A DNA stretch of 64,000 nucleotides from the NCBI GenBank assembly GCA_964445085.1, contig CAYUJV010000001.1:812-64811 (forward strand), read 5' to 3'. The notes under the pieces were generated by a model that saw only the letters and a list, made by a program, of their open reading frames with translations, did not search any database and was not told the origin of the DNA. Positions 7,046 to 48,108 of the stretch are shown one piece after another (position 1 is the first letter of the stretch; every line of letters starts with the position of its first letter). The position numbers and the translations under genes were made by a program. This DNA is from an uncultured Burkholderiales bacterium (GTDB lineage: Bacteria; Pseudomonadota; Gammaproteobacteria; Burkholderiales; Thiobacteraceae).

Positions 7046-7061
7046 ACAGAGCGAAGACATC

Positions 7062-24014: not shown

Positions 24015-24365
24015 TCAGAAGGCCACGAGGATCGGTTCGTCCCCGACCACGTATTGGCAGGCAAGGCGCCACAAGGGCGGCACGTCAGCGAGGACATCCG
24101 TTTCGTACTGTTGGCGCGAAATCTTGCCGCGCTTGAGAAGTGCGCGCTTTTCCCGGCCGCTCAGGGTTACGCGCCGGGCGCCCGGCCGCCCGGGCCTGGG
24201 CAGCACCTTGACGGCGCAGCTTCCGCACCTGCCCTCTTCGCACCGGCAGTAGCCGGGAATGCGAAACTCGCGCATCAGGCTCAGCAAGGTCCGCCGCTGG
24301 GCCGGGTCCACGTTCACCGTGTACCGGTCCGGCAGCTTCAGCGTCAAGAACGTCACTTCTGCCAT
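24015..24365 (-). CDS. plant-type [2Fe-2S] ferredoxin-like protein between nifK and nifE
   Basis: CEEGRCGSC (Cx4Cx2C) plus a distal LACQ. Confidence 0.7.
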   Translation of the reverse strand: MAEVTFLTLKLPDRYTVNVDPAQRRTLLSLMREFRIPGYCRCEEGRCGSCAVKVLPRPGRPGARRVTLSGREKRALLKRGKISRQQYETDVLADVPPLWRLACQYVVGDEPILVAF

Positions 24366-27664: not shown

Positions 27665-29309
<1,645 letters not shown>

Positions 29310-29338
29310 GTCGGCCCTTGCGTGTCGATTCCATCGAA

Positions 29339-29353
29339 GCAACGCCTGTGCCA
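29339..29353 (-). promoter_or_regulatory. sigma54 (-24/-12) promoter of the Rrf2 gene
   Basis: Minus strand reads TGGCAC-aggcg-TTGC, 30 bp upstream of the Rrf2 ATG. Confidence 0.55.
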
Positions 29354-30819: not shown

Positions 30820-31749
30820 GTGATCGGGGACGACGTGCAGGAACGCGCGCTGGGCGCCTATCTGGGCTTCGCCGTCGGCGACGCCCTGGGAGCAACGGTC
30901 GAATTCATGACAGCCGCCGAGATTCAACACAACTACGGCATGCACCGCGACATGATCGGTGGCGGCTGGCTCAAGCTCAGGCCGGGCGAGGTCACCGACG
31001 ACACGCAGATGTCCCTGGCGCTGGGACAGGCCATCGTCGACAGCGGCGGCTGGAATGCGCGCGCCGCCGCCGATGCTTTCGCCGCGTGGCTCAAGTCCAA
31101 ACCCATCGACGTGGGCAACACCTGCCGCCGCGGGATTCAGCGCTACATCATGGAGGGTACGCTGGCCGGCCCGCCCAACGAAGGCGACGCCGGCAACGGC
31201 GCCTGCATGCGCAACCTGCCGCTGGCGCTCGCGACGCTGACTGATGACGAAGCATTCGCGCGCGCGACCTTGGAGCAGTGCCACCTCACCCACCACCATC
31301 CCTTGTCGGACGCCGCCACGCTGGCCTTCGGAAGAATGACGCGCACCCTGATCCGCGGCGGCGGCTTCAGGGACTGCCGGGCGGAGGCGAACCGCCTGAT
31401 CGATGCGTTTCCGGTGTTCCGCTTCGACCCCTATCCCAGGCGCGCCTCGGGCTATATCGTCGATACGACCCAGACGGTGCTGCACTATTTTTTCCGCACC
31501 GACAACTTCGAGGATTGCGTGACCGAGGTGGTGAACCGCGGCGAGGACGCGGACACCAACGGCGCGCTGGCCGGCATGCTGGCGGGCGCCGCCTATGGCG
31601 TATCGGACATTCCGGGCTACTGGCTGAAGAAGCTGGACAAGAAAGTCCGGGCGCGCATCGAGGAGCAGACCGAGGCGCTGCTGGGCATCGCCGCCACAAT
31701 ACCCAAGGGGCAAGAATCGAGTCGGAAGCCCCGGCAACCTGCGCCCTGA
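30820..31749 (+). CDS. draG: ADP-ribosyl-[dinitrogen reductase] glycohydrolase DraG
   Basis: GTG start. ALGAYLGFAVGDALGATVEF...EVTDDTQM...GEDADTNGALAGMLAGA (ARH family signatures). Confidence 0.85.
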   Translation: MIGDDVQERALGAYLGFAVGDALGATVEFMTAAEIQHNYGMHRDMIGGGWLKLRPGEVTDDTQMSLALGQAIVDSGGWNARAAADAFAAWLKSKPIDVGNTCRRGIQRYIMEGTLAGPPNEGDAGNGACMRNLPLALATLTDDEAFARATLEQCHLTHHHPLSDAATLAFGRMTRTLIRGGGFRDCRAEANRLIDAFPVFRFDPYPRRASGYIVDTTQTVLHYFFRTDNFEDCVTEVVNRGEDADTNGALAGMLAGAAYGVSDIPGYWLKKLDKKVRARIEEQTEALLGIAATIPKGQESSRKPRQPAP

Positions 31750-31777
31750 ACCTTGTAATTTGAACTTTCGTGCCACC

Positions 31778-33826
31778 ATGGCCACTTTGATTTTTTATGA
31801 AAAGCCCGGCTGCGCGAACAATGCACGGCAGAAGCGGCTGCTGCTCGATGCCGGGCACGAACTCATCGTCCGCGACCTGCTGAGCGAGCCGTGGACGGCG
31901 CAGCGCCTGCTGACATTCTTCGACGGCCTGCCAGTCGCCGAGTGGTTCAACCGCGCCGCGCCGCAGGTGAAATCCGGCGAGATCGACCCGGCGCGCGTTG
32001 GGGCCGAGGCGGCGCTGAAACTGATGCTGAGCAATCCATTGCTGATCCGGCGTCCGCTGATCGAAGGGAACGGCTGGCGGCTTGCGGGCTTCGACGCCGA
32101 GTTCGTACGCAGGCACCTGGGCGTGGCACCGGACGATGCGCCGCGCGACCTCGAGTCCTGCCGCCGTCCACCTGGCGCGGCCCCCTGCCCCGCGCCCCAG
32201 GACAGCCGGCGCGCGGAGGTGGCGCTCGCCTACCACGAGCGCACCAAGCATCGCCCTGAGCGCTACGCCGCCGGTCCGGAGACCCTGGACTGGACGGGCC
32301 AGCCGGACCCGTTCCGTACATTCAAGGGAAGTCCCACCCTCCGCCTGCCGCTGTGCGGCGGGCGCCTGGCCACCTCCTTCGCCGGCATCTATACGCCAGA
32401 GGAAGTCTGGTCGCCGGCGCTATCGCTGGATGCGCTGGGCGCGCTGCTGGAACTGTCGCTCGGCCTGTCGGCGTGGAAGGAATACGGCCCGGACCGCTGG
32501 GCGCTGCGCTGCAACCCCTCCAGCGGCAACCTGCACCCGACCGAGGCCTACGTGATCGCGCGTGGCATCGCGGGACTGGATGACGGCCTCTATCACTACG
32601 CGAGCCGCAGCCACGCGCTGGAGCAACGCTGTCGCGCACCAGCGGATGGAGCGGCGAGCGAGCACGGGCTGTGGATCGGGCTCTCCTCGATCCACTGGCG
32701 CGAGGCGTGGAAATACGGCGAGCGTGCCTTTCGCTATTGCCAGCTCGACGTGGGCCATGCCCTGGCCGCGCTGCGCTACGCCGCCGGCGTGCTCGGCTGG
32801 CGGCTGCGCCTGGTGACGGCCTGCGAGCACTCGCATCTGGCGCGGCTGCTGGGCCTCGATCGGGTCGAGGATTTTCCCGGCGCGGAACGGGAGGACGCCG
32901 ACCTGCTGGTGCAGGTGCTGCCACGAACCGAACCCAAACTGACTGCCGCGGCGCCTGAGCCCTGGCCGGACGCGCACTCGATGTGGATGGGCCAGGCGAA
33001 TACCCTCGATCCCCATCCCATGTACAGCTGGCCGGTCATCGACGAAGTCGCGGCCGCCACGAAAAAAACCGGGCAGGCGACGGAAGCACCCGCGCGCAGC
33101 CAGTATCCGCCCGCGACCCCCGCCGCCGGGCTGCCCGCCGCCCAGGTCATCCTCGGCCGGCGCAGCGCGCAGCGTTTCGATCCGCAGTTCGTCCTGCCAG
33201 CCAAGGACTTTTTCCACCTGCTCGACAGCCTGCTTCACCGGCCGCACGCGCCGTGGGACGTATGGGACCATGGGCCCAGGGTTCATCCCGTTCTGTTCGT
33301 GCACCGCGTGGAGAGCATCGCGCCCGGGCTTTACATCCTGGTGCGTGCGCCGGACGCGGAGGTGCGGTTGCGCACGGCAATGAGCGATGAGTTCGAATGG
33401 GAACGCGTGCAAGGCTGCCCGGCACACCTTCCCCTGTTCCGCCTGCAGCCCGGCAAGTGGCACAAGGTCGCGCGCGCGGTGAGCTGCCAGCAGGCCATCG
33501 CCGCCGACAGCTGCTTCTCGCTGGGCATGCTGGCAGAGTTCGAACCCACCCTGCGGGAGGACGCCTGGCGCTACCGCCAGTTGCACTGGGAAGCAGGTCT
33601 GCTGGGGCACGTGCTGTATCTCGAAGCGGAAACGCTGGAGCTGCGCGGCACCGGCATCGGCTGCTTCCTCGACGATGCGTTCCACGAACTGCTGGGGCTG
33701 AAGGACCGCAGCTTCCAGTCCCTCTACCACTTCACGGTGGGCCGCGCGCTCAGCGACACGCGCATCACCACCCTGCCGCCTTACCCGGACCGCGAGGCGG
33801 TGCCCGACACGGAGCCCATGCCATGA
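31778..33826 (+). CDS. fusion protein: ArsC/Spx-fold 'nitrogenase-associated protein' domain plus tandem SagB/nitroreductase-like dehydrogenase domains
   Basis: N-terminus MATLIFYEKPGCANNARQKRLLLDAGHELIVRDLLSEPWT...WFNRAAPQVKSGEI. After a Pro/Ala linker comes AYHERTKHRPERYAAGPETLDWTGQPDPFR...CNPSSGNLHPTE...GIGCFLDD. Confidence 0.75.
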   Translation: MATLIFYEKPGCANNARQKRLLLDAGHELIVRDLLSEPWTAQRLLTFFDGLPVAEWFNRAAPQVKSGEIDPARVGAEAALKLMLSNPLLIRRPLIEGNGWRLAGFDAEFVRRHLGVAPDDAPRDLESCRRPPGAAPCPAPQDSRRAEVALAYHERTKHRPERYAAGPETLDWTGQPDPFRTFKGSPTLRLPLCGGRLATSFAGIYTPEEVWSPALSLDALGALLELSLGLSAWKEYGPDRWALRCNPSSGNLHPTEAYVIARGIAGLDDGLYHYASRSHALEQRCRAPADGAASEHGLWIGLSSIHWREAWKYGERAFRYCQLDVGHALAALRYAAGVLGWRLRLVTACEHSHLARLLGLDRVEDFPGAEREDADLLVQVLPRTEPKLTAAAPEPWPDAHSMWMGQANTLDPHPMYSWPVIDEVAAATKKTGQATEAPARSQYPPATPAAGLPAAQVILGRRSAQRFDPQFVLPAKDFFHLLDSLLHRPHAPWDVWDHGPRVHPVLFVHRVESIAPGLYILVRAPDAEVRLRTAMSDEFEWERVQGCPAHLPLFRLQPGKWHKVARAVSCQQAIAADSCFSLGMLAEFEPTLREDAWRYRQLHWEAGLLGHVLYLEAETLELRGTGIGCFLDDAFHELLGLKDRSFQSLYHFTVGRALSDTRITTLPPYPDREAVPDTEPMP

Positions 33827-34614
33827 GCCACGAAAAACCCTTTCAGCGCATCGACGCCGAAGCCGCGCGCCGCCTGCTCGCCCGCGGCAAGGTGCTGGTG
33901 CTGGATTCCCGCGACCAGGTTCGCTTCGACCTGGCGCACATTCCCACGGCGCGGCACCTGACCAGCGGCAATCTGGACGCCTTCGTGCTCGCCACGCCGA
34001 AAACCACGCCGGTGCTGATCTACTGCTACCACGGCAACGCGAGCCAAACCCACGCCCAGACCTTCGCCGACTTCGGCTTTGGCGAGGTCTACAGCCTGGA
34101 TGGCGGCTTCGCCGCTTGGCAGCGGGCGCAGCCGAAATCGTCCCCGCCCACGCTCACGCTGCGGCTTGCCCAATGGCTGCGGGAACATGGCTATCCCGCC
34201 GACGACCTCGACGCGGTGGCAGAACACGGCATGACGCCCCTGATGCGCGCCGCCAAGCTGGGCGACACGGCGATCGTGTTCGAACTGATCCAGAGCGGCG
34301 CCGCCCTCGACGCCACCAACGTGGACGGCAATACCGCGCTGTGGCTGGCCTGCGTGGGCGAAAGCCTGGAGGCCATCGACCTTCTCATCCGCGCCGGCGC
34401 GAACCCGGACCACCAGAACGATAACGGTGCCACCTGTCTGATGTATGCCGCCTCGACGGGAAAGCATCGGGTGGTGGAGCAGTTGCTGGCGTCCGGGGCG
34501 GACCCGCGGCTGAAGAGCCTGGACGATTTCACCGCGCTGGACATGGCGGCGACGATCGAGTGCCTGCGGACGTTGCGGAAGGCAACGAAAGACCCCACGC
34601 CGATGGCGGGCTGA
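33823..34614 (+). CDS. rhodanese (GlpE-type) - ankyrin-repeat fusion protein
   Basis: Active-site loop CYHGNAS and DGGFAAW, followed by ankyrin repeats (GMTPLMRAAKLGDTAIVFELIQSGAALDATNVDGNTALWLA...). ATGA overlap with the upstream gene. Confidence 0.75.
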   Translation: MSHEKPFQRIDAEAARRLLARGKVLVLDSRDQVRFDLAHIPTARHLTSGNLDAFVLATPKTTPVLIYCYHGNASQTHAQTFADFGFGEVYSLDGGFAAWQRAQPKSSPPTLTLRLAQWLREHGYPADDLDAVAEHGMTPLMRAAKLGDTAIVFELIQSGAALDATNVDGNTALWLACVGESLEAIDLLIRAGANPDHQNDNGATCLMYAASTGKHRVVEQLLASGADPRLKSLDDFTALDMAATIECLRTLRKATKDPTPMAG

Positions 34615-34705: not shown

Positions 34706-35572
34706 TCAGCCTGCGGCGGCCACGGGCTCGGGAGTCTGCGCGCCGCTCAACACGCTTTGAAACACCTCGAGCGGCATATCCAGCCGTTGGATATTCTGCT
34801 CCGCCAGGAAGCGCGCCTCGTTTTTGGTCAGTTCGCCCGGGAGCACGGCCCAGTGCACGTCGGAGGAACGCTTCATGATCTGGCGCGCGAAGGTCCGTTC
34901 CAACTGGTTGCGGAAGCGGCAGCCGAGGAAAAGGAAATGGCGGCCGGTGCGCAATTGCTGCACCACCTCCGGAATCGGGGTCTGGATGTCGATCTCGGTG
35001 AGCACTTCCACGAAGTCGGTGTCCGAGACCAGGAAATTCTTCGCCGGGCTGATCCCACCGAGGGGCTTGTACAGCAGCACCGGCCAGGTATCGGCTTCCT
35101 CGGGGTCGCCCTGGGCGCCATCCTGGCGGAAGTAGTGGGTCCAGGTGCCGAAGTGCTCGGACTGGCTGACGCCCTGCACCTGCCCCCACAGCAGCCGCGA
35201 CTGCAGCGCGGTCCCCATGGCGTTGTCGTACCAGGCGTCGACGATCAGCAGCGGCTCGCGCCGGATGGCGGCGATGGTGTGGTGCAGCACGGTGGGCGCC
35301 ACCGCGGGGGCAAAGGCCTCCGCCATGATTCCCACCAGGGTCTTGCGGTGCTTGAAGTTCTCGATGTACTGGGCGGCCGCCGTCAGGTTGCCGCGAATCT
35401 TGTGCGGCACGCTCGACTTCGCCACCAGGCGCTGCACCAGTTCTTCCGGCGACTTGGGCACCGGGCTTCCCCCCGGGACCAGATCGAGCATGCCCGGCCC
35501 CAGATAAGGCACGACGCTGCCCTCTTCCAGGTAGGCGGAAATCTCCTTCAGCAGCGCCGTAGTCTTGTCCAT
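34706..35572 (-). CDS. SIR2_2-like (SIR2-fold) protein, last gene of the nifB operon (tentative family call)
   Basis: By-eye match to the SIR2_2 pattern: VVPYLGPGM, LLIVDAWYDNAM, LLYKPLGG...FLVSDTDF, RHFLFLGCRF. 288 aa. Confidence 0.6.
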   Translation of the reverse strand: MDKTTALLKEISAYLEEGSVVPYLGPGMLDLVPGGSPVPKSPEELVQRLVAKSSVPHKIRGNLTAAAQYIENFKHRKTLVGIMAEAFAPAVAPTVLHHTIAAIRREPLLIVDAWYDNAMGTALQSRLLWGQVQGVSQSEHFGTWTHYFRQDGAQGDPEEADTWPVLLYKPLGGISPAKNFLVSDTDFVEVLTEIDIQTPIPEVVQQLRTGRHFLFLGCRFRNQLERTFARQIMKRSSDVHWAVLPGELTKNEARFLAEQNIQRLDMPLEVFQSVLSGAQTPEPVAAAG

Positions 35573-35584
35573 GATCGCTTCTCC

Positions 35585-35797
35585 TCAGGCCGCAGACGAT
35601 TTCAGTTGATCGATCTGCTGGCGCGGGATCCGGAAGATGGCACGCCCGCCGGACAGGACTTCATAGCAGTCGGTGGTGGCGCGGGTGAGCAGGTTGAACC
35701 AGTCCTGCGCACTGAGCGTACCCGGGCGCTCGCCGATTTCGGTGACGCTGCCGTTGGGGGCGAAGCGTACGTGGATCATGACCTTGTCGTTGTCCAT
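35585..35797 (-). CDS. hypothetical protein (70 aa)
   Basis: ORF-track ORF with a GGAGAG RBS, 16 bp after the ferredoxin gene. No recognisable domain. Confidence 0.55.
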   Translation of the reverse strand: MDNDKVMIHVRFAPNGSVTEIGERPGTLSAQDWFNLLTRATTDCYEVLSGGRAIFRIPRQQIDQLKSSAA

Positions 35798-35813
35798 GGT
35801 GTCTCTCCGCGAC

Positions 35814-36119
35814 TCACAGGCCGGAACCGAAGCCCAGCAGCTCCACCGTCACGTCCTCGCTGCCCAGCTTCGCCTGGCAGGCCAGCCGCGACTTGGATCC
35901 GACGCCGACGATGCTGTCGAGCTTTTCGTTCTCGGCGCGCTGGATTTTGGACAGGCTCTTGCGTCCATCGTGGACGAAGATGTGACACGCACCGCAGTCG
36001 GCCTTGCCCCCACACTTGCTGCCGATTTTTTCGCCGGCGGCGAGCAGGGCTTCGAGGATGCTCATGCCCTCGGCGGACTGCACGGTCTTGCCGGAGGGAT
36101 TGATTGTCAACAGTGGCAT
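35814..36119 (-). CDS. [2Fe-2S] ferredoxin
   Basis: MPLLTINPSGKTV...CGGKADCGAC...RLACQ. Strong AAGGAG RBS. Internal ATG of ORF 35814..36161. Confidence 0.75.
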   Translation of the reverse strand: MPLLTINPSGKTVQSAEGMSILEALLAAGEKIGSKCGGKADCGACHIFVHDGRKSLSKIQRAENEKLDSIVGVGSKSRLACQAKLGSEDVTVELLGFGSGL

Positions 36120-36157
36120 GGCTTTGCTCCTTGGGTGTCGGGTGAGTCGTAGATAAG

Positions 36158-37309
36158 TCATAGGTAAATGGCCGAGCCCGCCCCGATGTTCACCGAGGCG
36201 TCCTTGGCGGTCTGCACGATGAAGCCGATCTGGTCCTCGCTCAGATGGGCGTGGAACGGCAGCGCGATGATGCGGTCGGCCACCTTCTCCGTAACCAGAA
36301 AGTCGCCCTTGCGGTAGCCCAGATTGGTGTAGAAGGCCTGCAGGTGCTGCGGCTGGCAGTAGGCCGCGGCTTCGATCTTCTCCGTGTGCAGGTCATTCAC
36401 GATGGCGTCGCGGCTGCTCCGCGTGAAGCGCGTGCCCAGATGCACCAGGTACAGGAACCAGTGCACCTCGGTCACGTCCGGCCCGATGTAGGGGTCCTTG
36501 ATGCCCTCGAAGGATTTCACGTAGTCGTAGTAGATCTGCTCCACCTGCTTGCGCCGGGCGAGGATCTGGTCGATGCGCTGCAGTTGGGTCAGGCCGATCG
36601 CCGCCGTCATTTCGTTCATGCCCGCCTGATACGGCAGGCTGCCGGTGATCACGATGGAAAAGCGTTCGTCCATCCTCCGGCTGCGCAGGTAGCGCAGCTT
36701 GCTCGCCAGTTCCGGATCGTCGGTCACGGCCATGCCGCCTTCGCCGCAGGTGAGCGCACCCGGCTGGGAGAAATCGAAGATGGCGACGTCGCCGAAGCCC
36801 CCCACGCGGCGCCCCTGGTAGGTGGAGCCGATGGCCTCGGTGGAGTCCTCGATGAGCTTGAGGCCGTGACGCGTGGCCATGTCGCGCAGTGCCGCCCATG
36901 GCGCGGGATGGCCATTGGTGTTCCCGGCCAGGATGGCACGGGTGGCGGGGGTGATTTTCGCCTCGACCTTCTCCGCCGCCAGCGTGCCGGACCAGTAGTC
37001 GATGTCGGCGAAGACGGGTCTGGCACCGGCGAGCGCGATCGCATGGGAGATCTGATGCCAGCTGTAGGGCGAGGCGATGACCTCGTCACCCGGTCCAATG
37101 CCCATCGCCTTCAGTGCCAGCAGCAGGCCCAGGGTGCCGCTGGCGACGGCCACGCCGTGCCTGCGGTCGGTGTAGGCCGCGAAGGCCGCCTCGAAGGACG
37201 CGACCGCCGGACCCTGGCTCAGGCGCGGCGACTTGAGGATGTCGGCGACCGCATCCAGTTCCAGCAGACTGATGTCGGGATCGGACAGGGGAATCCAGCC
37301 TTCGGTCAT
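36158..37309 (-). CDS. DegT/DnrJ/EryC1/StrS-fold aminotransferase-like protein lacking the Schiff-base lysine
   Basis: Family-typical GTLGLLLALKAMGIGPGDEVI, LIEDSTEAIGS and FDFSQPGALTCGEGG. In the last block the position normally held by the PLP-binding Lys (FSFxxxKxxTxGEGG) is Gly. Confidence 0.8.
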   Translation of the reverse strand: MTEGWIPLSDPDISLLELDAVADILKSPRLSQGPAVASFEAAFAAYTDRRHGVAVASGTLGLLLALKAMGIGPGDEVIASPYSWHQISHAIALAGARPVFADIDYWSGTLAAEKVEAKITPATRAILAGNTNGHPAPWAALRDMATRHGLKLIEDSTEAIGSTYQGRRVGGFGDVAIFDFSQPGALTCGEGGMAVTDDPELASKLRYLRSRRMDERFSIVITGSLPYQAGMNEMTAAIGLTQLQRIDQILARRKQVEQIYYDYVKSFEGIKDPYIGPDVTEVHWFLYLVHLGTRFTRSSRDAIVNDLHTEKIEAAAYCQPQHLQAFYTNLGYRKGDFLVTEKVADRIIALPFHAHLSEDQIGFIVQTAKDASVNIGAGSAIYL

Positions 37310-37318
37310 CGCCTGTCC

Positions 37319-37579
37319 TCAGTTGCGCGCCGCCACCACGATGCCGGTCGCAGCCCCCGGATCGTCGGTGATGCGCCAGCAGTGTTCCCGGCCATCCACC
37401 AGATAGAGGTCGAATTTCGGATACGCCCGAAACGGCTCCTCGCCGCTCATGTCCTGCGCGTCACAGCGGGTGAGCGACAGACCGGGAAAGCGGGCGCGAA
37501 AATCGGCGAGGGGATTCGCCTCCGCCGGCGGTGTCGCCAGCAGGTCGTCGAGGTGCGCAAGATCGTCCTGGGTGATCAT
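37319..37579 (-). CDS. hypothetical small nif-cluster protein (86 aa)
   Basis: MITQDDLAHLDDLLATPP... Internal ATG of ORF 37319..37699, 11 bp after nifT. Confidence 0.55.
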   Translation of the reverse strand: MITQDDLAHLDDLLATPPAEANPLADFRARFPGLSLTRCDAQDMSGEEPFRAYPKFDLYLVDGREHCWRITDDPGAATGIVVAARN

Positions 37580-37590: not shown

Positions 37591-37800
37591 CTACTCTCCG
37601 AGCCGGCGCGCTTCCACCGTGATCGGCAGGGTGGTCTCCGGCGCCATCGCCGGCAGTTCCAGGCGCCAGCCATTGGCCAGCGTCACCACCCCGCCCCACA
37701 TGCCCGCCTGCTCCATGGCGACGATGGGCTCTTCCAGATCCTTCTTCGCCACGTAGGCGGACAGGGTGCCTTGGGCATCTTTTCTGATCATCACTTTCAC
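37591..37800 (-). CDS. nifT: nitrogen fixation protein NifT/FixU
   Basis: MKVMIRKDAQGTLSAYVAKKDLEEPIV...WGGVVTLANGWRLELP...LPITVEA. Confidence 0.85.
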   Translation of the reverse strand: MKVMIRKDAQGTLSAYVAKKDLEEPIVAMEQAGMWGGVVTLANGWRLELPAMAPETTLPITVEARRLGE

Positions 37801-37827: not shown

Positions 37828-38982
37828 TCATGCCGCCTCGGCGGTCAGTCGTTTGACGATGGAACCCAGCGCATCGAGCACGCGGTCGATCTCTGCCTCA
37901 GTCGTGTAGCGGCTCAGGGAGAAGCGAATGGTCGCCAGTGCCTCCGCCTCGCTCAGCCCCATGGCGGTCAGCACGTGCGACGGCACATTGCCGCCGGCGG
38001 TGCACGCCGCGCCGGAGGAGGCGCAGATGTGCGCCTTGTCCAGGCGGTCGAGGATCACCTCGGCCTGCAGCCCGCCGAAGCAGATGCTGCTGGTGTTGCC
38101 GATGCGCGGGGCCAGCCCGCCGTTGAGGGTGGTGCCCGGGATGCGCATGAGCACGCCGGTCTCGAGCCGGTCGCGCAGGGCAGTGGTCTGCCTGGCTTTC
38201 GCCTGCAGCTCGGCGGCGGCGAGCTCGCAGGCGACGCCCAGGCCGACGATGGCCGGCACGTTCTCCGTCCCGCCGCGGCGCCTGCGCTCCTGGTGGCCAA
38301 ACAGCAGGGGCGGAAATTTCAGCCCCTTGCGCACGAACAGGGCGCCAACCCCCTTGGGCGCGTGCAGCTTGTGGCCGGAGAGGGAAAGCAGGTCGGCCGG
38401 TATCTGCGCCAGGTCGATGGGCGCCTTGCCCGCCGCTTGCACGGCATCGGTGTGGAACAGCACGCCCTTGGATTTGGCGATACGCGCCGCCTCCGCTATG
38501 GGGAACAGTACCCCGGTTTCGTTGTTGGCCCACATCAGGGACACCAGGGCGGTGTCGGCGGTGATCGCCCGCTCCAGCGCCATGAGGTCGAGCATGCCTT
38601 CGCCGTTGACGGGCAGCCGGGTCACGCGCAGGCCACCGCGCTCCAGCTGCGCCAGCAGTTCCAGGCTGGAGGGATGCTCCACCGCGCTCACCACCACGTG
38701 CGACTTGCCCGGGCATGCGGCCAGCGCCCCGAGAATGGCAAGGTGGTTGGATTCCGTGCCGCAGGAGGTGAACACGATCTCCGCCGGCGCCGCATTGAGC
38801 AGGCGCGCCACGGCGCGCCGCGCCTGTTCCACCTGCTCCCTGGCGGCCACACCCGCGGCGTGTTTGCTGGACGGATTGCCGTAGAGATCGCGCAGGCAGC
38901 GCAAGACCGGCTCCACGCATTCCGGCGCCAAGGCCGTGGTGGCGTTGTTGTCCAGATACACGATGGGGTCCTGATCCGTCAT
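37828..38982 (-). CDS. nifS: cysteine desulfurase NifS
   Basis: VYLDNNATT...TSCGTESNHLA...LSLSGHKLHAPKGVGALF...SSGAACT. 384 aa. Internal ATG of ORF 37828..39537. Confidence 0.9.
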   Translation of the reverse strand: MTDQDPIVYLDNNATTALAPECVEPVLRCLRDLYGNPSSKHAAGVAAREQVEQARRAVARLLNAAPAEIVFTSCGTESNHLAILGALAACPGKSHVVVSAVEHPSSLELLAQLERGGLRVTRLPVNGEGMLDLMALERAITADTALVSLMWANNETGVLFPIAEAARIAKSKGVLFHTDAVQAAGKAPIDLAQIPADLLSLSGHKLHAPKGVGALFVRKGLKFPPLLFGHQERRRRGGTENVPAIVGLGVACELAAAELQAKARQTTALRDRLETGVLMRIPGTTLNGGLAPRIGNTSSICFGGLQAEVILDRLDKAHICASSGAACTAGGNVPSHVLTAMGLSEAEALATIRFSLSRYTTEAEIDRVLDALGSIVKRLTAEAA

Positions 38983-39299
38983 TGCCAGAAAATCCGGTCC
39001 GGGTCGTGATTCAGCACGTCGAGCACGGTGCCCAGGGAGCGGAACTCGCCGTACAGCAGCCATGAACGCTCTGCATGGTCCTTGCGATAGAGACGCCAGG
39101 CGCGCTTGCCTTCCATATACTCCAGGCGGGCGATGTCGATCACGCCGCCCTCCGGGTCCACATTGCGGGAGCAGCAGGGGCTCTGTATCCAGTACCCCGT
39201 GTCGGCCGGCTTCACCGCGGGTGACACGTAGCGATAGCGCCTGCGCGCTGCCAGTGCGCGTTCGATGCGTTTGCGGTCGATGTCGTTCGGATGCTGCAC
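38979..39299 (-). CDS. DUF3024-like protein
   Basis: GTG start. RYRYVSP...WIQSPCCSRNVDPEGG...WRLYRKDHAERSW. Its stop overlaps the nifS start (ATGA). Confidence 0.55.
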   Translation of the reverse strand: MQHPNDIDRKRIERALAARRRYRYVSPAVKPADTGYWIQSPCCSRNVDPEGGVIDIARLEYMEGKRAWRLYRKDHAERSWLLYGEFRSLGTVLDVLNHDPDRIFWQ

Positions 39300-39326
39300 A
39301 CCTTGCCTCCGTGCCCTTGCGCCGCG

Positions 39327-39566
39327 CTACAGCGGCGCGATCTCTTCCTCGAGGCAGCCCACCACCCGGCCCTCCGGGAATTCCACCAGGTAGACCGGCA
39401 GGTTCAGTTCCTCGTGATGCCCGACGTTGACGATCTCGCCCTGGGTGCCGTTGCTCACCAGCAGCGCGTCCGGTTCGCGATCCGGGTAGGTGCCGTCGTT
39501 GAACAGGTCGGTGGTGGCCACGACCGGCTGGCCCCACTGGTATTTCGCTTCCCGCAGTTCGATCAT
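39327..39566 (-). CDS. nifZ: NifZ-domain protein (paralog 2)
   Basis: YQWGQPVVATTDLFNDGTYPD...LLVSNGTQGEIVNVG...VYLVEFPEGRVVGC. Confidence 0.8.
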   Translation of the reverse strand: MIELREAKYQWGQPVVATTDLFNDGTYPDREPDALLVSNGTQGEIVNVGHHEELNLPVYLVEFPEGRVVGCLEEEIAPL

Positions 39567-39880
39567 GCTGCCTCCCCGCTCAGTGCGGCATCGCCGGCCG
39601 GCTTCTCGTCCTCGACCGCTTCCAGCTCCTTGCCCCGCATGCCGACCCGGTGGCCGGTGTCGATGAAATCCACGGCATAGATGTAGAACTGCTGCAAGAA
39701 CGTGCCGATGCTGGTGACGTAGCCGATGTCGCCCTTGCGCACCAGTATTTCGCCGATGTCCTTGCCGGCGTAGGTGCCGTCGTTGCGCACGGTCTTGGTG
39801 GAGCGCACCTTCTGGCCGTAGTCGAAGATCGGGTCGGCGGTGAGTTCCACGATGTCGCTGTCACGACTGATTTTTGCCAT
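39563..39880 (-). CDS. nifZ: NifZ-domain protein (paralog 1)
   Basis: FDYGQKVRSTKTVRNDGTYAG...ILVRKGDIGYVTSIG...IYAVDFIDTGHRVGM. 4-nt overlap with paralog 2. Confidence 0.8.
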   Translation of the reverse strand: MAKISRDSDIVELTADPIFDYGQKVRSTKTVRNDGTYAGKDIGEILVRKGDIGYVTSIGTFLQQFYIYAVDFIDTGHRVGMRGKELEAVEDEKPAGDAALSGEAA

Positions 39881-39893
39881 GGCTGCCCCCTGC

Positions 39894-40673
39894 CTATACG
39901 AGAGTCAGAACCGGTTCATCCTGCCCGCCACTGCCGGATGCCAGGCGGGCGGCGGCCAGCTCGCGGACCATGGGGTCCGCGTCGTCCCGCATGCGGGTGA
40001 GCGCCTTGCCGGAGATGCGGCCCGCCACTTCGTAGCGCACGCGCCAGTCCGGATCGTCGGCCAGCAGGTGCAGCTGCCCGTCCTTGAGCCGCTTGGCCAC
40101 CTCCTGACGCACGGCCGCATCCTCGTCGTGGACCATGTGCGTGAGCCAGCCTTCTGCGATACGGCGCGCGACGGTGCAGCGCACGGAAACGTCCGGGTCG
40201 CGCACCATCAGCGGCAGCAGCGCTTCCGGGATGCGGCGCGCCACCACCTGGCGCACGTAGTAATCCGGGTCATTGATCATGGCGCCGAGGTCGCGCGGCT
40301 CGAGGCGCGCGGCCACGCGGATGCGCACCTCCCGGTGCGGGTCGTTGATGAGCGTCAGCAAATGCTTGGGCGGCAGGCGCATGGCGGCGCTCCAGCGCAC
40401 CGTTTCGTCGGGGTCGTACATCATGCGCGGCAGATGGAACACGTCCACGTGCTTGGCTGCCACCGCACGCACTTCGAAATAGGGGTGATCCAGAAAATTC
40501 CGGGCGCGATCCGGGTTCCAGTCGAAGAAGCGGTCGATGTGCTTGGCATAGCGGTCCTCGACGCAGGCGTGGCCCAGCCGGCAGCGGTCCTGCGCAAGCA
40601 GTTCCCGGCAGGCGCACGCGCCGCAGTCGATTCTGTCTCCCGGCCAGTTCAGGGGCGGGCCAATGTCATTCAT
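39894..40673 (-). CDS. leucine-rich-variant (LRV) [4Fe-4S] protein
   Basis: N-terminal Cys cluster CGACACRELLAQDRCRLGHAC followed by repeated DPDxxVRxxVAxRL helices. Confidence 0.8.
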   Translation of the reverse strand: MNDIGPPLNWPGDRIDCGACACRELLAQDRCRLGHACVEDRYAKHIDRFFDWNPDRARNFLDHPYFEVRAVAAKHVDVFHLPRMMYDPDETVRWSAAMRLPPKHLLTLINDPHREVRIRVAARLEPRDLGAMINDPDYYVRQVVARRIPEALLPLMVRDPDVSVRCTVARRIAEGWLTHMVHDEDAAVRQEVAKRLKDGQLHLLADDPDWRVRYEVAGRISGKALTRMRDDADPMVRELAAARLASGSGGQDEPVLTLV

Positions 40674-41232
40674 CGTCGTCCTCCCGGCCGTGGCGGGCGA
40701 GCACCTGGAGCAGGACGGTGGCGTTCAGTTTGTCGCTCGGGTCCAGCTCCAGCATTTTGGTGAGCGCGGCATGGCTTTCCTCCAGCCGCCCGAGGCGCAT
40801 CTGCAGGTAGCCGTAGGCTTTCAGGGTGAACAGATAGAAGCGCGGCAGGATCGCATCGTAGCTACCGAAATCGGCATCGCTCCGATGCACGGCACGCCAG
40901 TCCTCGTTCAGGCGGTTGTCCCGCGCCGCCTTCGCCAGGACACGCCTGGCCACCAGCAACGCATCCGTCAGGCGCCCCTTGTAGAAATAGAAGCGGTACA
41001 GCGCGATCAGCACGGCGGCATGCCCCGGCGCAAGCGCCTGGGCCTGGAACAGGTGGCTCTCCGCCACCGCGTCGTGCGCGTAATTGAGCCCCGCCAGGCG
41101 CAGGTGCAGTTCAGCCTGCTCCGGCAGGTGCCCGCCGAGACAGGCACGCTCCAGCCAGTCCGGGTTGATGTCCTCCGGTGCGTCGGCGGTGCTCATCGGC
41201 CGGCCCTCCCCTGTCACGCGCACCGTTGCCAT
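40666..41232 (-). CDS. nif-associated TPR-like protein, paralog 2
   Basis: LYRFYFYK, FYLFTLKA, MRLGR and ELDP blocks are shared with 17647..18120. Alternative start at 41196 (GGGGAGGG RBS). 8-nt overlap with the LRV gene. Confidence 0.7.
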   Translation of the reverse strand: MATVRVTGEGRPMSTADAPEDINPDWLERACLGGHLPEQAELHLRLAGLNYAHDAVAESHLFQAQALAPGHAAVLIALYRFYFYKGRLTDALLVARRVLAKAARDNRLNEDWRAVHRSDADFGSYDAILPRFYLFTLKAYGYLQMRLGRLEESHAALTKMLELDPSDKLNATVLLQVLARHGREDDDE

Positions 41233-41250
41233 CGCATCCCCCGCGCCGCC

Positions 41251-41616
41251 TCAGTGCTTGCGCCCGATGCTGGAGATATCGACGCTGGCGACGCCGCCGC
41301 TCGAACTGCTGCAGCCGCAGGAGGGCGAATTCGGCGTGACGAAGGTCAGGCCGCTGTTGGTCGGCGTGTCGGCGAAGTCCATGGTAGCGCCTTCCAGCAG
41401 CAGGCGACTTTCCGCCGGCAGGAAGAACTTCACGCCGTTGACCTCGACCACCGCATCGCCCTCTTTCGGCGCCGCTTCCACGGTGAATTCGGACGCGAGT
41501 CCGGAACAGCCGCCGGCGCTGACCATCAGGCGAAAGCCGGCGTTCTCGCCCGCACCGCCGAAGCGGATCATGCGGCGCACGAACTTCTCGGCGGCGGGCG
41601 TCATCGTGAACTGCAT
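41251..41616 (-). CDS. HesB/IscA-family Fe-S carrier (IscA-nif type)
   Basis: FRLMVSAGGCSGLASEF ... SCGCSSS C-terminal Cys pair. Confidence 0.8.
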   Translation of the reverse strand: MQFTMTPAAEKFVRRMIRFGGAGENAGFRLMVSAGGCSGLASEFTVEAAPKEGDAVVEVNGVKFFLPAESRLLLEGATMDFADTPTNSGLTFVTPNSPSCGCSSSSGGVASVDISSIGRKH

Positions 41617-41625
41617 CGTCCTCTC

Positions 41626-41847
41626 CTAGGCCGCCTGATAGCGCGGGTAGCTGTTGTCGATGATGCAGGTGTTGTCCACCGGGCACACGGCGACGCACTG
41701 CGGCTCGTCGAAATAGCCGATGCACTCGGTGCATTTCTCCGGCTTGATGATGAAGGTGCCGTCCTTTTCGCGGATGGCGTTGTTGGGGCACTCCGGTTCG
41801 CACGCCGAGCAGGCGGTGCATTGGGAAGCGACGATCTTGTAAGCCAT
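41626..41847 (-). CDS. fdxN: 2x[4Fe-4S] ferredoxin FdxN
   Basis: [16 protein letters not shown] ... [19 protein letters not shown], directly downstream of nifB. Confidence 0.85.
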
Positions 41848-41879
41848 GGTCTTGCTCTCCTAGCTGTTGCTTGAAAATC

Positions 41880-43439
41880 TCATGCCGCGATGAAGGCGCC
41901 CTGGCGGATGCTCGCGTCGCCGCGCTCCTGGTGCACGATCTCGCCGCTCTTCACCTTTTCCAGGTAGTCCTTGAAGTAGCGCAGGGCAGACTGTTCGATG
42001 TACTCGTTGGCGTACTGGTCCACCGCGTCGATGCCGGCGGCCTTCAGGTCGGCCTTGGGACAGCCGCCGATCTTGGCCACGAACACCGCATGGCAGTCGT
42101 TGATGGCGCGGATCACCGTGGCGAGCGTGTCCTCCTCGCCGAAGCCGCCCTGGCAGTACATGTCCACCCGGCGATGGCCGACGAACTTGGCGCCGGACGT
42201 CGAGAGTTCGTAGATCTGAAACTCGTGGGCGTGCCCGAAGTGCTCGTTGATGCGGCCGCTGCCCTTGGTGGCGACGGCCACCAGCATCCTGAGGCCGGCG
42301 AATTCGCCGGACATGTCTTCCAGTTCCGCCTGCCGCGCCTCGACCTTGGCCTGGCGTTCCTTCTCCACGGCTTCCTGGTAGGCCTTGCGGCCCTCCAGGT
42401 CATAGGTGACTTCCATCGCTTCGATCTTTTCGGTGGTGAACTCGGCGCTGCGGTCCTCGCCCAGCAGGCCGACGGCGTCGGCCCGGCACTGGCGGCAGTG
42501 GCGCATCATGTTCATCTCGCCCTCGCACTGGTCCTGCAGGGCCTTGAGCTCCTGCGCGGTGGGGCCGCGCTGGCCGTTGAGGCCGAACACGGTGCCGTGC
42601 TCCGGTGCCGAGATGAGCGGCATGATGTTGTGCAGGAAGGCGCCGCGGGATTTCACCGCCCTGTTCACCTCGACCAGGTGCTGGTCGTTGATGCCGGGGA
42701 TCATCACCGAGTTGACCTTGCACAGGATGCCGCGCTCGGTCAGCATCTCCAGGCCGCGCAGCTGGTGCTCGCTCAGGATGCGCGCCGCGTCGATGCCCTT
42801 CCAGCGCTTGTTCTTCCAGAAGATCCACGGGTAGATGTGCTGCCCCACTTCCGGATCGACCATGTTGATGGTGATGGTGACGTGGTCGATGTTGTACTGG
42901 GACAGGCGATCGACGTGCTCGGGCAGCGCCAGACCATTGGTGGACACGCACAGCTTGATGTCCGGTGCGGTCTTGGCCACCAGCTCGAAGGTCTTGAAGG
43001 TCTTTTCGGGATTGGCGAGGGGGTCTCCGGGGCCGGCGATGCCCAGCACCGTCATCTGCGGAATGGTGGAGGCCACCGCCAGCACCTTCTTCGCCGCCTG
43101 CTCCGGCGTGAGCTTCTCGCTCACCACACCGGGACGCGACTCGTTGGCGCAATCGTACTTGCGGTTGCAGTAGTTGCACTGGATGTTGCAGGCCGGCGCC
43201 ACGGCCACGTGCATGCGTGCGTAATGGTGATGGGCCTCCTCGCTGTAGCAGGGATGGTTCTTCACCTTCTCCCAGATTTCCGGCGGCAGGTCGTTCTGCC
43301 CCGCGCCCGAGCCGCAGCTGGCCTTGCCGCTGCCGCCCGAGGTGCCGCAGCCCTTGTGCTCGGCCATCTGCTGCATGATCTGATCGAGAGGCTTGATCTG
43401 ATCGATGCCCACGCTCGCCACACTTGCCTGATTGTCCAT
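41880..43439 (-). CDS. nifB: FeMo-cofactor biosynthesis radical-SAM protein NifB (with C-terminal NifX-like domain)
   Basis: [28 protein letters not shown] and C-terminal [25 protein letters not shown]. The ATG at 43439 was chosen because the sigma54 promoter lies inside the longer ORF 41880..43535. Confidence 0.9.
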
Positions 43440-43519
43440 GCCCTGGCTCCTGTCCGGTTCAACCGCTGGCGATCGCGCCAGCGACCGCCCGTCAAATGAG
43501 TTCGTACACGAGCCGTTCA

Positions 43520-43534
43520 GCAACAAGCATGCCA
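43520..43534 (-). promoter_or_regulatory. sigma54 (-24/-12) promoter of nifB
   Basis: Minus strand reads TGGCAT-gcttg-TTGC, about 80 bp upstream of the nifB ATG. Confidence 0.7.
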
Positions 43535-43591: not shown

Positions 43592-43607
43592 TGTCGCAAC
43601 TGCTACA
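43592..43607. promoter_or_regulatory. NifA-type UAS upstream of nifB
   Basis: TGTCGCAACTGCTACA, centred about 67 bp from the -24 element. Confidence 0.65.
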
Positions 43608-43775
43608 AATGGAGACCGGCGGGGAGGGAATTGTCGGGAAGACTACAGCAGTGGAAGCAATGCAATGGTTTGCGCCGCCAACGTGGCCTTTCGTGGGGAA
43701 ATGCGGCGCGCCGGCCGAGTGCGCAATGGGAAGCGCGGATGCGAACTCGGTCCGCGCTGGTTTTGCAGCCCACTG

Positions 43776-45392: not shown

Positions 45393-45464
45393 ATCAGCCA
45401 ACCCCGCTGGGCCGGATGACGGCCCCAAGAAACAACAATGGTGACACCATGGTCATTTCAGGGA

Positions 45465-45479
45465 GCAAGTAGCGTGCCA
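45465..45479 (-). promoter_or_regulatory. sigma54 (-24/-12) promoter of nifA
   Basis: Minus strand reads TGGCAC-gctac-TTGC, about 70 bp upstream of ATG 45392. Confidence 0.6.
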
Positions 45480-45561: not shown

Positions 45562-48108
45562 TCACCGCTGCCACAGAATGTGCGCGGCTTCCAGCGGCAC
45601 CGCCACGCCGTCGCGCCGCGGTATCATCCGCGGCGTGTAATCCGACGCCGCACGGGCTGCAGGCACCGCTGCGCCATAGGCATAGCCGTTGGCCGCGCCT
45701 ACCAGTTGCCGCACGCGCGTCATCTCCACCCGCTCGGCTTCGGCGCCGCCGCGGCCATCGGCATAGAGCTCGACCCGCACCATTTCCGGATCGAGGTCGT
45801 CCAGATACACCTGCACTTCGAACAGGTGCTGCCCGCCCCGGCTCTCCAACTTCAGCTCGCCGAAGCGCAGCGCACCCCAGGTTTGCGCCAGCATATGGCG
45901 CCAGTCGACGATTTCGGCGCCGGTGGCGCCGTTGGCGGCGGCCCGCCCGCGGTAGGCTGCGGCGGCCGGGAGATAATGGGCTTCGGTATATTCGCGCACC
46001 GCGCGGTTGGTGGAAAAGCGCGGCGTCAGGCGGGCCATGCTCTCCCGCATCCGCGCCACCCAGGCGGTGGGGATGCCCTGTTCGTCGCGGCTATAGAATT
46101 CGGGGATCACCTCGCGTTCCAGCAGGTCGTAGAGCGCGGCCGCCTCGCTGGCGTCCCAGGCGGGATCATCGTCATGCTCCAGGCGGTCGCCCAGCGCCCA
46201 GCCGACTTCCGGCGCGTAGGCTTCCGCCCACCAGCCGTCCAGCTCGGACAGGTTGATGCCGCCGTTGACCAGCACCTTCATGCCGCTGGTTCCGCAGGCT
46301 TCCCACGGGCGCCGCGGCGTGTTGAGCCACACATCCACCCCCTGCACCAGCTGCTCGGTCAGCTGCATGTCGTAGTCGCTGAGGAAGATCGCGTGGGGAC
46401 GCACCTCGGGTCTGCGGATGAAGCGCGTCCATTCCCGGATCAGGGCCTGACCCTCCTGGTCTGCGGGATGGGCCTTGCCGGCGATGATGATCTGCACCGG
46501 GCGCTGCGGATGGGTCAGCAGGCGCAGCAATCGCTCCGGGTCGTGCAGCAGCAGGTTGGGGCGCTTGTAGCTCGCGAAGCGGCGCGCAAACCCGAGCGTC
46601 AGGATGTTGGGGTCGAACAGATGCCTGGCCGCCTCGACCGCCGCCGGCGATGCGCCGGAGGCGGCGAGTTGCCGGGACAGGCGTTGGCGCGCGTACTCGA
46701 CCAGGGCGGTGCTGGCCGCGGTGCGAAACTGCCACAGCCTGGCGTCGGGAATGGCACGGATGCCCTGCTCCAGACTCTCCACCGCCCCCAGCCAGCGGTT
46801 CTTGCCGCAGGCTTCCGTCCACAGCGCATCCGCGGCTGCCGAGTCCCAGGTCGGCATGTGCACGCCATTGGTCACGTGGCCGACCGGGATTTCGTCCTGC
46901 GGCCAGCGCGGGAACAGCGGCGCGAACAGGCGCCGGCTCACCCTGCCGTGCAGGCGGCTCACGCCATTGACCGCGCCGCTACCGCGGATCGCCAGGTAGG
47001 CCATGTTGAACGGCTCCAGCGCATCCTGCGGGTTCCGCCGGCCCAGGGCCAGCAGATCGTGTCGGGAGATGCCGAGCTGCTGCTCGGCATAGGCACCGAG
47101 ATACTGCTCGATGAGCGCCGGCGCGAAGCGATCGAAGCCGGCCGCCACCGCCGTGTGCGTGGTGAACAGGTTGCCCGCCCGGGTGACGGCCAGCGCGACC
47201 TCGAAGCTGCGCCCGCTTGCCGCCATGAAGCTGCGCGCGCGCTCCAGCACCGCGAACGCGGCATGCCCTTCGTTCAGATGGCAGACTTCCGGCTCGACGC
47301 CGAGCGCCGCGAGCAGGCGCCAGCCGCCGATGCCCAGCAGCAATTCCTGCTTCAGGCGCAGCTCCGGCCCGCCGCCATACAGCTCGCTGGTGATGCCGCG
47401 ATGCGCCGGGTAGTTCGCGGCATCGTTGCTGTCCAGCAGGTACAGCTTCACGCGGCCGACCTGCACCTGCCAGGCGCGCAGCCACACCGAGTAGCCGGGC
47501 AGGTCGATCTCCAGGCGCAGCCACTCCCCGTCCGCCTTGCGCAGAGGCGTGATCGGCAACTGCCCGGGGTCGTTGTAGGGGAACAGCGCCTGTTGCGCGC
47601 CGTCCTGGTCGATCACCTGGCGGAAATAGCCCTGCTGGTAGAGCAGCCCCACGCCGACCACCGGGACGCCCAGGTCGCTGGCGGCCTTGAGCTGGTCGCC
47701 GGCCACGTTGCCCAGCCCGCCCGAGTAGATGGGCAGGGCGTCGCTCAGCATGAATTCCATGCTGAAATACGCCACCCCGCCGAGGACAGCCTCGGGATGG
47801 GCCTGCTGAAACCACGCCGGCGCCGCCGCCGCGTCCCGCCTGGCGTGCACCAGATCCTCGACGTCCTTGCGGAAAGCGGGATCGGCCAGGACACGCTGGA
47901 GGGTCTCCCGCGACACCGTCTGCAGCACGACCCAGGGGTTGTGCGTCAGTTCCCACAACACGGGATCCAGCCGCCGCCACACCTGGTCGGTGGCGTGGTT
48001 CCACGCCGAACGCAGGTCCAGGGCAAGCTCGGACAGGGCATCGAATCCCTCCACATCCGCGGACAGGATGCGCTGCTTCGGGTGCCTGCCTCGTGTTGCT
48101 TCGCTCAC
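45562..48108 (-). CDS. glgP: alpha-glucan (glycogen/maltodextrin) phosphorylase family protein
   Basis: 848 aa. [53 protein letters not shown] is typical of the alpha-glucan phosphorylase clade. Confidence 0.85.

Follow-up and report, generated by a model that had tools for sequence, protein, structure and literature searches.

Genes of the SIR2 family have been listed before in nitrogen fixation (nif) clusters, among them ZMO1821 of Z. mobilis, PST_1325 of P. stutzeri (beside nifH) and a gene of Paenirhizobium, and a preprint on the Thalassolituus nif cluster reports a SIR2 gene beside nifH and lists a DUF6129 gene as well. In R. capsulatus, the SIR2 family protein Rcc03262, encoded beside NifT (Rcc03263), was found in the wild type and not in a nifA1-A2 deletion strain (PMC6925177). 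Two nif-cluster papers call the SIR2 gene regulatory or propose deacetylation, without experiments. Here, we describe five genes that follow nifT at the end of what looks like the nifB operon of an uncultured Burkholderiales bacterium of the Thiobacteraceae, located in a 64,000-nucleotide (nt) stretch of contig CAYUJV010000001.1 (hereafter the window). These genes, which we refer to as the tail, encode a DUF6129-type protein, a DegT-like protein, a [2Fe-2S] ferredoxin, a conserved 70-amino-acid (aa) protein and a SIR2-like protein. We propose, with a probability of roughly one half, that the tail proteins are nitrogenase maturation or support factors that bind a ligand or a partner.

The published SIR2 genes resemble that of the window in being stand-alone SIR2_2 genes within a nif cluster and, in R. 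capsulatus and the rhizobia, in adjoining nifT. Those of P. stutzeri and Thalassolituus lie beside nifH instead, and their orthology rests on annotation and context. Our literature search found no functional study of a nif-linked SIR2 gene, and nothing relevant on a DegT-like gene with nif or anf, on the 70-aa protein or on DUF6129 function. The statement in the preliminary description of this locus that the block is not a described nif system therefore stands as regards function; as regards gene content it needs amending, since the SIR2 gene (and, in the one preprint, DUF6129) was already listed. Parts of the tail are thus on published nif cluster maps, and the tail is not a categorically new system: it consists of nif accessory genes together with Lys-less DegT and catalytically stripped SIR2 subfamilies. 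Comparable small, conserved and poorly understood genes that end nitrogenase operons include nifT/fixU, nifZ, nifW and anfO/anfR, which belong to different protein families.

The features on which the following analysis draws are these:

37319..37579, minus strand: gene for a predicted DUF6129-family protein of 86 aa, an open reading frame (ORF) directly after nifT
36158..37309, minus strand: gene for a DegT-fold protein of 383 aa, an ORF with a PF01041 match
35814..36119, minus strand: gene for an adrenodoxin/ISC-type [2Fe-2S] ferredoxin of 101 aa, an ORF with a Fer2 match
35585..35797, minus strand: gene for a conserved orphan protein of 70 aa, an ORF supported by an alignment of homologues
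34706..35572, minus strand: gene for a stand-alone SIR2_2-fold protein of 288 aa, an ORF with a PF13289 match
37591..37800, minus strand: nifT (fixU), 69 aa, the gene that anchors the tail (PF06988, 9e-32; TIGR02934, 2e-33)
37828..43400, minus strand: ORFs of the upstream genes nifB, fdxN, iscA-like, TPR-like, LRV, nifZ, nifZ, DUF3024 and nifS
43519..43534, minus strand: putative sigma54 (-24/-12) promoter of the nifB operon, an exact match to TGGYRY-N5-TTGCW
43592-43607 and 43632-43647, upstream of the nifB promoter: NifA-type upstream activating sequences (UAS), matches to TGT-N10-ACA

Recomputation reproduced the five minus-strand ORFs and the gaps of 9-38 nt that the preliminary description had given. 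The gaps measure 27 nt from nifS to nifT, 11 from nifT to the 86-aa gene, 9 from there to the DegT-like gene, 38 from the DegT-like gene to the ferredoxin gene, 16 from the ferredoxin gene to the 70-aa gene and 12 from the 70-aa gene to the SIR2-like gene. A Shine-Dalgarno-like purine-rich stretch is now seen in each tail gap (GGGGAA, GGACAGG, AAGGAG, GGAGAG and GGAGAAG). The codon bias noted earlier was borne out as well, with a GC content of 0.79-0.89 at third codon positions and 0.42-0.48 at second positions in the five tail genes, the same as in the flanking nif genes. A composition check of the window detected no break at the tail block and its ORFs include no mobility gene around it, again in agreement with the first description. 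The five genes are far beyond chance ORFs, with tens to thousands of conserved homologues each.

The ten genes before the tail (nifB-fdxN-iscA-TPR-LRV-nifZ-nifZ-DUF3024-nifS-nifT) form one contiguous string, which is called likewise on the identical contig L084, and their order from nifB to nifS was found again in Methylococcus and Paraburkholderia records. The sigma54 promoter reported ahead of nifB proved to be an exact site accompanied by the two TGT-N10-ACA motifs. Exact sigma54 sites number nine in the whole window against 0.77 expected, with none further on the minus strand between 43500 and 34706, and relaxed matches (two mismatches) occur in the string only at chance frequency; we therefore rejected an internal sigma54 promoter for the tail. 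Inside the DUF6129 gene, a UAS-like TGT-N10-ACA (37450-37465) lacks an exact sigma54 site in its vicinity and probably arose by chance. No minus-strand terminator-like site was detected inside the string from nifB to the SIR2-like gene, as the reported lack of a hairpin or T-run had implied, and the total count of terminator-like sites was at chance level. A convincing intrinsic terminator was not found 3' of the SIR2-like gene either (fold z = +0.85), and the operon end is marked only by a convergent rhodanese-ankyrin gene. Rfam and repeat scans gave no matches. Because a -24/-12 promoter and UAS lie upstream and no terminator or promoter intervenes, the arrangement fits membership of a NifA/sigma54 nif operon. 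Judged from sequence alone, the nifB operon would comprise 15 genes under apparent NifA and sigma54 control, with the tail at its distal end and co-transcribed with the nifB genes, as had been suggested.

The gene-neighbourhood check proposed in the preliminary description has now been run, and many proteobacterial loci carry the tail beside nif. When the SIR2-like alignment was run against GTDB, each species being represented by one genome, at least 520 relatives came up, and the best 80 loci were tabulated with tblastn. Among these, nifB, nifT or nifZ lay within 10 kb of the SIR2-like gene in 74 of 80; four of the other six were truncated upstream and two had other nif-type genes. Of the 74 loci with at least 3.5 kb of upstream sequence, 70 encode NifT, 63 DUF6129, 57 the DegT-like protein, 49 the ferredoxin and 40 the 70-aa protein. 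The tail genes accompany nifB, nifS and nifZ rather than nifHDK in most loci. Where the host could be identified, it belongs to the Alpha-, Beta- or Gammaproteobacteria, except for two oddly labelled metagenome-assembled genomes (MAGs), and the loci nearest to the window come from Thiobacillus and Sulfuriferula-type MAGs. The two exceptions (L053 and L064, labelled Acidobacteriota and 'Candidatus Velthaea') carry a proteobacterial-type SIR2-like gene beside nif at ~61% identity, which reflects either lateral transfer or binning contamination.

The order found in the window (NifT-P86-DegT-Fdx-P70-SIR2, where P86 and P70 are the 86-aa and 70-aa proteins) is the commonest of 20 distinct arrangements, occurring in 30 of 83 loci, followed by NifT-P86-DegT-SIR2 (11/83) and NifT-SIR2 (7/83). 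The ferredoxin and 70-aa genes vary in presence and order, and the DegT-like gene occurs without the ferredoxin gene in at least 13 of these loci and the ferredoxin gene without the DegT-like gene in 6. Since the parts occur separately, the five genes are not one obligate module, as the preliminary description had treated them; the tail is a mosaic of three separable sub-modules. These are a near-universal core of NifT plus the SIR2-like protein, a pair of DUF6129 plus the Lys-less DegT-like protein, and the ferredoxin with or without the 70-aa protein.

Relatives of the SIR2-like protein were present on 75 of 72,556 plasmid records, all from Rhizobium, Sinorhizobium, Mesorhizobium, Paraburkholderia, Bradyrhizobium, Methylococcus or Microvirga. 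In a DNA search of plasmids, Methylococcus sp. EFPC2 showed the identical tail order after nifS-nifT, Paraburkholderia aromaticivorans has nifT followed by a hypothetical gene, DegT, SIR2 and Fdx, and symbiotic plasmids of Rhizobium, Sinorhizobium and Mesorhizobium have the minimal form nifB-fdxN-nifZ-nifT-SIR2. In Bradyrhizobium sp. BWA-3-5, nifS-nifT-SIR2 lies upstream of nifB and the DUF6129 and DegT-like genes come after nifZ-DUF3024. The DegT-like gene on this plasmid (L085:6000-7116) is frameshifted over two frames and absent from the gene table of the record, next to an intact DUF6129 gene, and may be dispensable or decaying in this strain.

The identities assigned earlier (DegT-like, [2Fe-2S] ferredoxin and SIR2-like) and the 'Lys-less' label were upheld by profile search and alignment. 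The 288-aa protein matches PF13289 (SIR2_2) at 2.3e-19, and its AlphaFold2 (AF2) model (pLDDT 88, pTM 0.88) retrieves in Foldseek the NADase domains of ThsA, DSR2 and KomC (E ~5e-10, TM 0.57-0.67, 13-16% identity). When a profile of 51 orthologues was aligned to ThsA (SeThsA, 7UXT), the ThsA motif TTNYD fell on VDAWYD, so that the position of the catalytic or ribose-binding Asn (W114) is Trp in 51/51, and KLHG fell on KPLGG, with the position of the catalytic His (H171 in DSR2, L171 in the window protein) occupied by Leu in 34 orthologues, Ile in 9, Phe in 5, Trp in 2 and His in 1, that of Rhizobium etli. In the conserved segment PYLGPG (G25-P26-G27), a candidate for the Gly-rich dinucleotide-binding loop, G25 is present in 51/51 orthologues and G27 in 40/51, and the Ser of GAGxS is absent. 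Conservation within the family is strongest in the motif N179..SD.D.VEVLTEIDIQTPIP201 (core SD.D.VEVLTEIDIQTPIP). Residues 185-195, its core, are the sole internal stretch of the model with a pLDDT below 50 (the C-terminus being the other low-confidence part), which is typical of a segment that becomes ordered on a partner or ligand.

The protein shares its fold with sirtuins and with the defence SIR2 NADases (ThsA of Thoeris, DSR2, KomC) and has a Gly-rich N-terminal loop that may match theirs, but differs from them in having Trp for Asn, a hydrophobic residue for His, an invariant acidic loop specific to the family and a nif context. A PADLOC search of four tail proteins gave no defence-model match at E<=0.01, and no partner sensor or effector domain or gene accompanies this stand-alone protein of 288 aa, whose gene neighbours are nif genes. 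Given the lack of a PADLOC match, the nif-only synteny and the restriction of plasmid relatives to diazotrophs, we rejected a defence-island reading of the SIR2-like gene.

The 383-aa protein matches PF01041 (DegT_DnrJ_EryC1) over 351 residues, that is at full length, with 6e-96. Its nearest solved relatives are perosamine synthetase (3BN1) and ArnB (1MDO), with a best PDB match of 2e-57, and it scores ~1e-57 against aminotransferases and 1e-22 to 1e-26 against dehydrases. Around the PLP (pyridoxal phosphate)-binding lysine, the window protein reads FDFSQPGALTCGEGG and perosamine synthetase FSFFGNKIITTGEGG. Across 39 nif-linked orthologues, the Schiff-base Lys position (G184 in the window) is Ser in 22, Gly in 15, Leu in 1 and Ala in 1, and Lys in none. 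Five residues before it, D179 is Asp in 39/39, in place of the Ser of canonical enzymes that contacts the cofactor phosphate in the ArnB and PseC structures. Much of the remaining site is kept, including the pyridine-N Asp (D155, 39/39), E158 (also invariant), the stacking aromatic at W84 (Trp 31, Phe 7, Tyr 1) and the S57-G58-T59 (SGT) loop. Three active-site motifs (FDFSQP, EDSTEA and N.NGHPA.W) show no variation, and the C-terminus N(V/I)GAG(A/S)AIYL varies hardly at all.

In common with the DegT/DnrJ/EryC1/StrS aminotransferases, the DegT-like protein therefore has the PF01041 domain, the pyridine-N Asp, the stacking aromatic, the SGT loop and GHPA.W, but it departs from them in lacking the Schiff-base Lys, in having Asp for the Ser at Lys-5, in its C-terminal NVGAGAAIYL and in its nif or anf context. 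Lys-less members of the fold are known: the 3-dehydrases E1 (with E3), ColD and SpnQ are dependent on pyridoxamine phosphate (PMP), the known Lys-less DegT members are PMP enzymes with Fe-S reductases, and E1 and SpnQ require electrons from [2Fe-2S] carriers. A [2Fe-2S] ferredoxin gene often adjoins the DegT-like gene of the tail as well, though the two are not strictly co-inherited and the block has no flavin reductase. Unlike these dehydrases, from which it is also more distant in sequence, the DegT-like protein has His at the Lys position in 0/39 orthologues and no E1-type set of [2Fe-2S] Cys ligands; C188 (35/39) is the single well-conserved Cys, C175 and C318 being present in 24/39 each. 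An E1/E3-like dehydrase reading was rejected on these two grounds. There are no sugar-nucleotide genes beside the DegT-like gene, whose neighbours are nifT, DUF6129, ferredoxin and SIR2-like.

A phmmer search of 1.84 billion cluster representatives showed that the nif-type DegT-like clade is compact: besides fragments it has a single full-length representative (60% identity), and the next matches lie at <=47%. The Lys-containing next matches, a sister clade at ~35-41% identity, read FAFYPNKQITTGEGG, and some of its members are, in our reading, fused to sugar-transferase-like or acetyltransferase-like domains. A DegT match on an Azospirillum plasmid, which has the Lys (FSFYANKIVTTGEGG) and lies inside a glycosyltransferase cluster, was set aside as an ordinary Lys-containing enzyme and not a relative of the tail gene. 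Three more distant Lys-less representatives (42-45% identity) keep FD(F/L)S, EDS.EA and N.NGHPA.W. On two metagenome contigs (L087:6335-7417 and L089:4116-5198), the gene for one of these, P0399 (42% identity, FDLSSPGPLSCGEGG), closes an Fe-only nitrogenase operon, in which it is preceded by anfH-anfD-anfG-anfK-anfO and an AIG2/GGACT-like gene; we found no mention of such a DegT gene after anfO in the literature. Among other Lys-less representatives, P0430 is encoded directly 3' of nifT and P0364 after nifT-DUF6129, and the contigs with P0401 are too short for its context to be judged. The idea that small ORFs upstream of the distant Lys-less genes are hidden DUF6129 members was not supported. 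As the Lys-less clade occurs with both Mo and Fe-only operons, its distribution suggests a function that different nitrogenases share.

The ferredoxin (Fer2, 8e-12) scores 71.3 bits against TIGR02007 (fdx_isc), for which the equivalog cut-off is 132.1, and among PDB entries it comes closest to E. coli ISC Fdx (1I7H, 1e-12), with the Cys ligands matched there and also in 3AH7. The ligand pattern Cys-x5-Cys-x2-Cys...Cys is that of ISC Fdx and of adrenodoxin and putidaredoxin; the tail protein differs from ISC Fdx in falling below the TIGR02007 cut-off and in being encoded in the nifB operon and not after hscA, the isc-operon position. We chose the start at 36119, which lies 7 nt behind AAGGAG and agrees with the gene call on contig L084, over that of a longer in-frame ORF at 36161. 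Elsewhere in the window, a second [2Fe-2S] (Fer2) gene, distinct from that of the tail, lies between nifK and nifE (24015-24365, minus strand). On the plus strand, an exact sigma54 site at 4368-4383 precedes genes for an IscS/NifS-like desulfurase (4429-5661), a 144-aa ORF and HscA (7062-8930); this ISC-like machinery (4368-8930) appears to be under a nif-type promoter of its own, apart from the nifS of the nifB operon.

The two small proteins offer fewer clues. The 86-aa protein scores 22.2 bits against PF19624 (DUF6129), slightly under the cut-off of 23.6. PF19624 is found on 120/120 of its listed homologues, down to 52% identity, and the identical protein on contig L084 is tagged with it, which makes membership of DUF6129 the natural assignment from sequence. 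Its invariant residues are R38-C39-D40, D43 and H66-C67 (a TRCD...D motif in the alignment), and the PDB yielded neither a fold match with E<1 for its AF2 model (pLDDT 82.6) nor a significant relative by sequence. The family of the 70-aa protein comprises 270 homologues, 0 of which have a Pfam domain, and is marked by the motif IHVRF..G.V.EI.ERP..Q.WF..LSGGRG.FR with no conserved Cys; no PDB sequence match and no significant PDB relative by sequence or fold was found. Kinship among NifT, DUF6129 and the 70-aa protein was rejected at an hhalign probability <1%.

Taken together, the alignments indicate that both look-alikes are without the residues for the chemistry of their families, NAD+ cleavage or deacylation in one case and PLP transamination in the other. 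The catalytic sites were remodelled and then frozen, not decayed, a pattern more in keeping with a newly acquired function in binding or catalysis than with pseudogenes. We favour the view that the SIR2-like and DegT-like proteins keep their folds with remodelled, invariant pockets and would bind a ligand or partner, not act as a deacetylase or a sugar aminotransferase. The SIR2-fold protein would have NifT as its partner and the DegT-fold protein DUF6129, and the ferredoxin would most likely donate electrons to the products of the upstream Fe-S assembly genes (NifS, the IscA-like protein and NifB/FdxN). That the two proteins bind instead of catalysing, that they serve metallocluster maturation and that the ferredoxin has these partners are inferences from sequence comparison. 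A bolder form of this proposal, which we advance tentatively and consider unlikely, is that the DegT-like protein (with DUF6129) and the stripped SIR2-like protein (with NifT) are neofunctionalised folds that bind a nitrogenase-specific ligand or partner, and so define an unrecognised maturation step common to Mo and Fe-only nitrogenases in proteobacteria. Such pockets might accommodate, for example, iron, the precursor of a cluster, or an intermediate of NifB or NifEN.

Several observations weigh against maturation factors that bind. Binding is preferred to catalysis only because canonical residues are absent, and a pocket that is remodelled yet invariant may also signal new chemistry. The SIR2 Gly-rich loop is apparently retained and would be compatible with nucleotide binding, and the retained pyridine-N Asp, aromatic and SGT loop make non-covalent PMP binding conceivable. 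The separate sigma54-preceded IscS-like/HscA cluster leaves the ferredoxin partner uncertain, and the 80 tabulated loci, chosen as the closest to the query, are biased towards similar architectures. A rival reading is a small-molecule pathway, in which the DegT-like protein would be a PMP enzyme like the 3-dehydrases E1, ColD and SpnQ, with a radical or redox step fed by the neighbouring ferredoxin, that makes or edits a metabolite required by nitrogenase or its cofactor. The PLP-site scaffold is mostly kept, the invariant motifs fit a working pocket, the ferredoxin gene adjoins the DegT-like gene in the commonest arrangement, and the known Lys-less members of the family are of this kind. We regard such a pathway as possible but improbable: the Lys position holds Ser, Gly, Leu or Ala and never the His of these enzymes, a single conserved Cys leaves no room for an E1-type cluster, the Ser of the phosphate site is Asp, no sugar-nucleotide genes are near, the closest relatives are aminotransferases and not dehydrases, and the DegT-like and ferredoxin genes each occur without the other in some loci.

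The preliminary description had proposed small-molecule modification or NAD-linked control, and neither sits well with a SIR2-like protein that has lost both catalytic residues and a DegT-like protein without Lys, His or the E1 Fe-S site. For NAD-linked regulation, the SIR2-fold protein would sense NAD+, ADP-ribose or a related nucleotide, or would deacylate or ADP-ribosylate a nif protein, and thereby tune nitrogenase activity or maturation. The fold is that of an NAD-binding domain, the Gly-rich loop is apparently retained, draT-draG lies convergent downstream in the same genome, and published papers label the gene regulatory or propose deacetylation. We find this reading doubtful, as Asn has become Trp in 51/51 and His hydrophobic in 50/51, the Trp would probably obstruct the nicotinamide/ribose pocket, rhizobial symbiotic plasmids keep nifB-fdxN-nifZ-nifT-SIR2 without dra genes near, and the paper labels carry no experiment. 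There is a slim chance that the tail instead serves protection or electron supply, with the ferredoxin feeding nitrogenase or an O2-scavenging route and the other proteins stabilising nitrogenase in aerobic or microaerobic proteobacteria. The proteobacterial hosts and the occurrence of the Lys-less DegT clade with Mo and Fe-only operons, which makes the role not Mo-specific, are in its favour; the association with nifB, nifS and nifZ rather than nifHDK is not, and neither is the type of the ferredoxin, as ISC/adrenodoxin-type ferredoxins are not known to be direct NifH donors and are not FeSII-like. That the genes are hitch-hikers unrelated to nitrogen fixation, for instance a defence-type SIR2 NADase and a polysaccharide aminotransferase, might be suggested by the closest solved structures, anti-phage NADases for one protein and sugar aminotransferases for the other. 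This is highly improbable and effectively refuted by synteny: the position after nifT recurs in three proteobacterial classes, and on plasmids the relatives are confined to replicons of diazotrophs. The four proteins tested also lack a PADLOC match, the block shows neither mobility genes nor a composition break, and the R. capsulatus protein is NifA-dependent (PMC6925177).

The surroundings of the tail contain further genes of interest. A plus-strand gene at 33823-34614, which faces the last gene of the nifB operon in convergent orientation, encodes a rhodanese (GlpE-like) and ankyrin-repeat protein, and its start overlaps the stop of a gene (31760-33826, plus strand) for a 688-aa fusion of an ArsC-like 'nitrogenase-associated protein' (TIGR01616, 2e-45) and SagB-type nitroreductase-like domains. 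The fusion gene follows draG (30820-31749), upstream of which draT lies on the identical contig L084. The fusion and rhodanese-ankyrin genes are found together again in five other loci (L004, L006, L009, L012 and L071), and Paraburkholderia pBN1 has two ankyrin-repeat genes at the place equivalent to the latter. On the minus strand, an Rrf2-family regulator gene (28854-29353) lies just upstream of nifH and has an exact sigma54 site of its own (29338-29353) with TGT-N10-ACA sites near, and a further exact site (45464-45479) lies directly upstream of nifA, beyond which is a glycogen-phosphorylase-like gene (45562-48108).

To specialists the tail will be a moderate surprise, a "conserved unknown" like several other ORFs of nif clusters. 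Database names such as "SIR2 family NAD-dependent protein deacylase" and "DegT aminotransferase" are misleading about the chemistry of its products. Our result defines a widespread, nitrogenase-specific set of uncharacterised genes and divides it into three sub-modules, each of which can be deleted or co-expressed on its own, and the full set of helper genes of aerobic bacteria matters for moving nitrogen fixation into crops.

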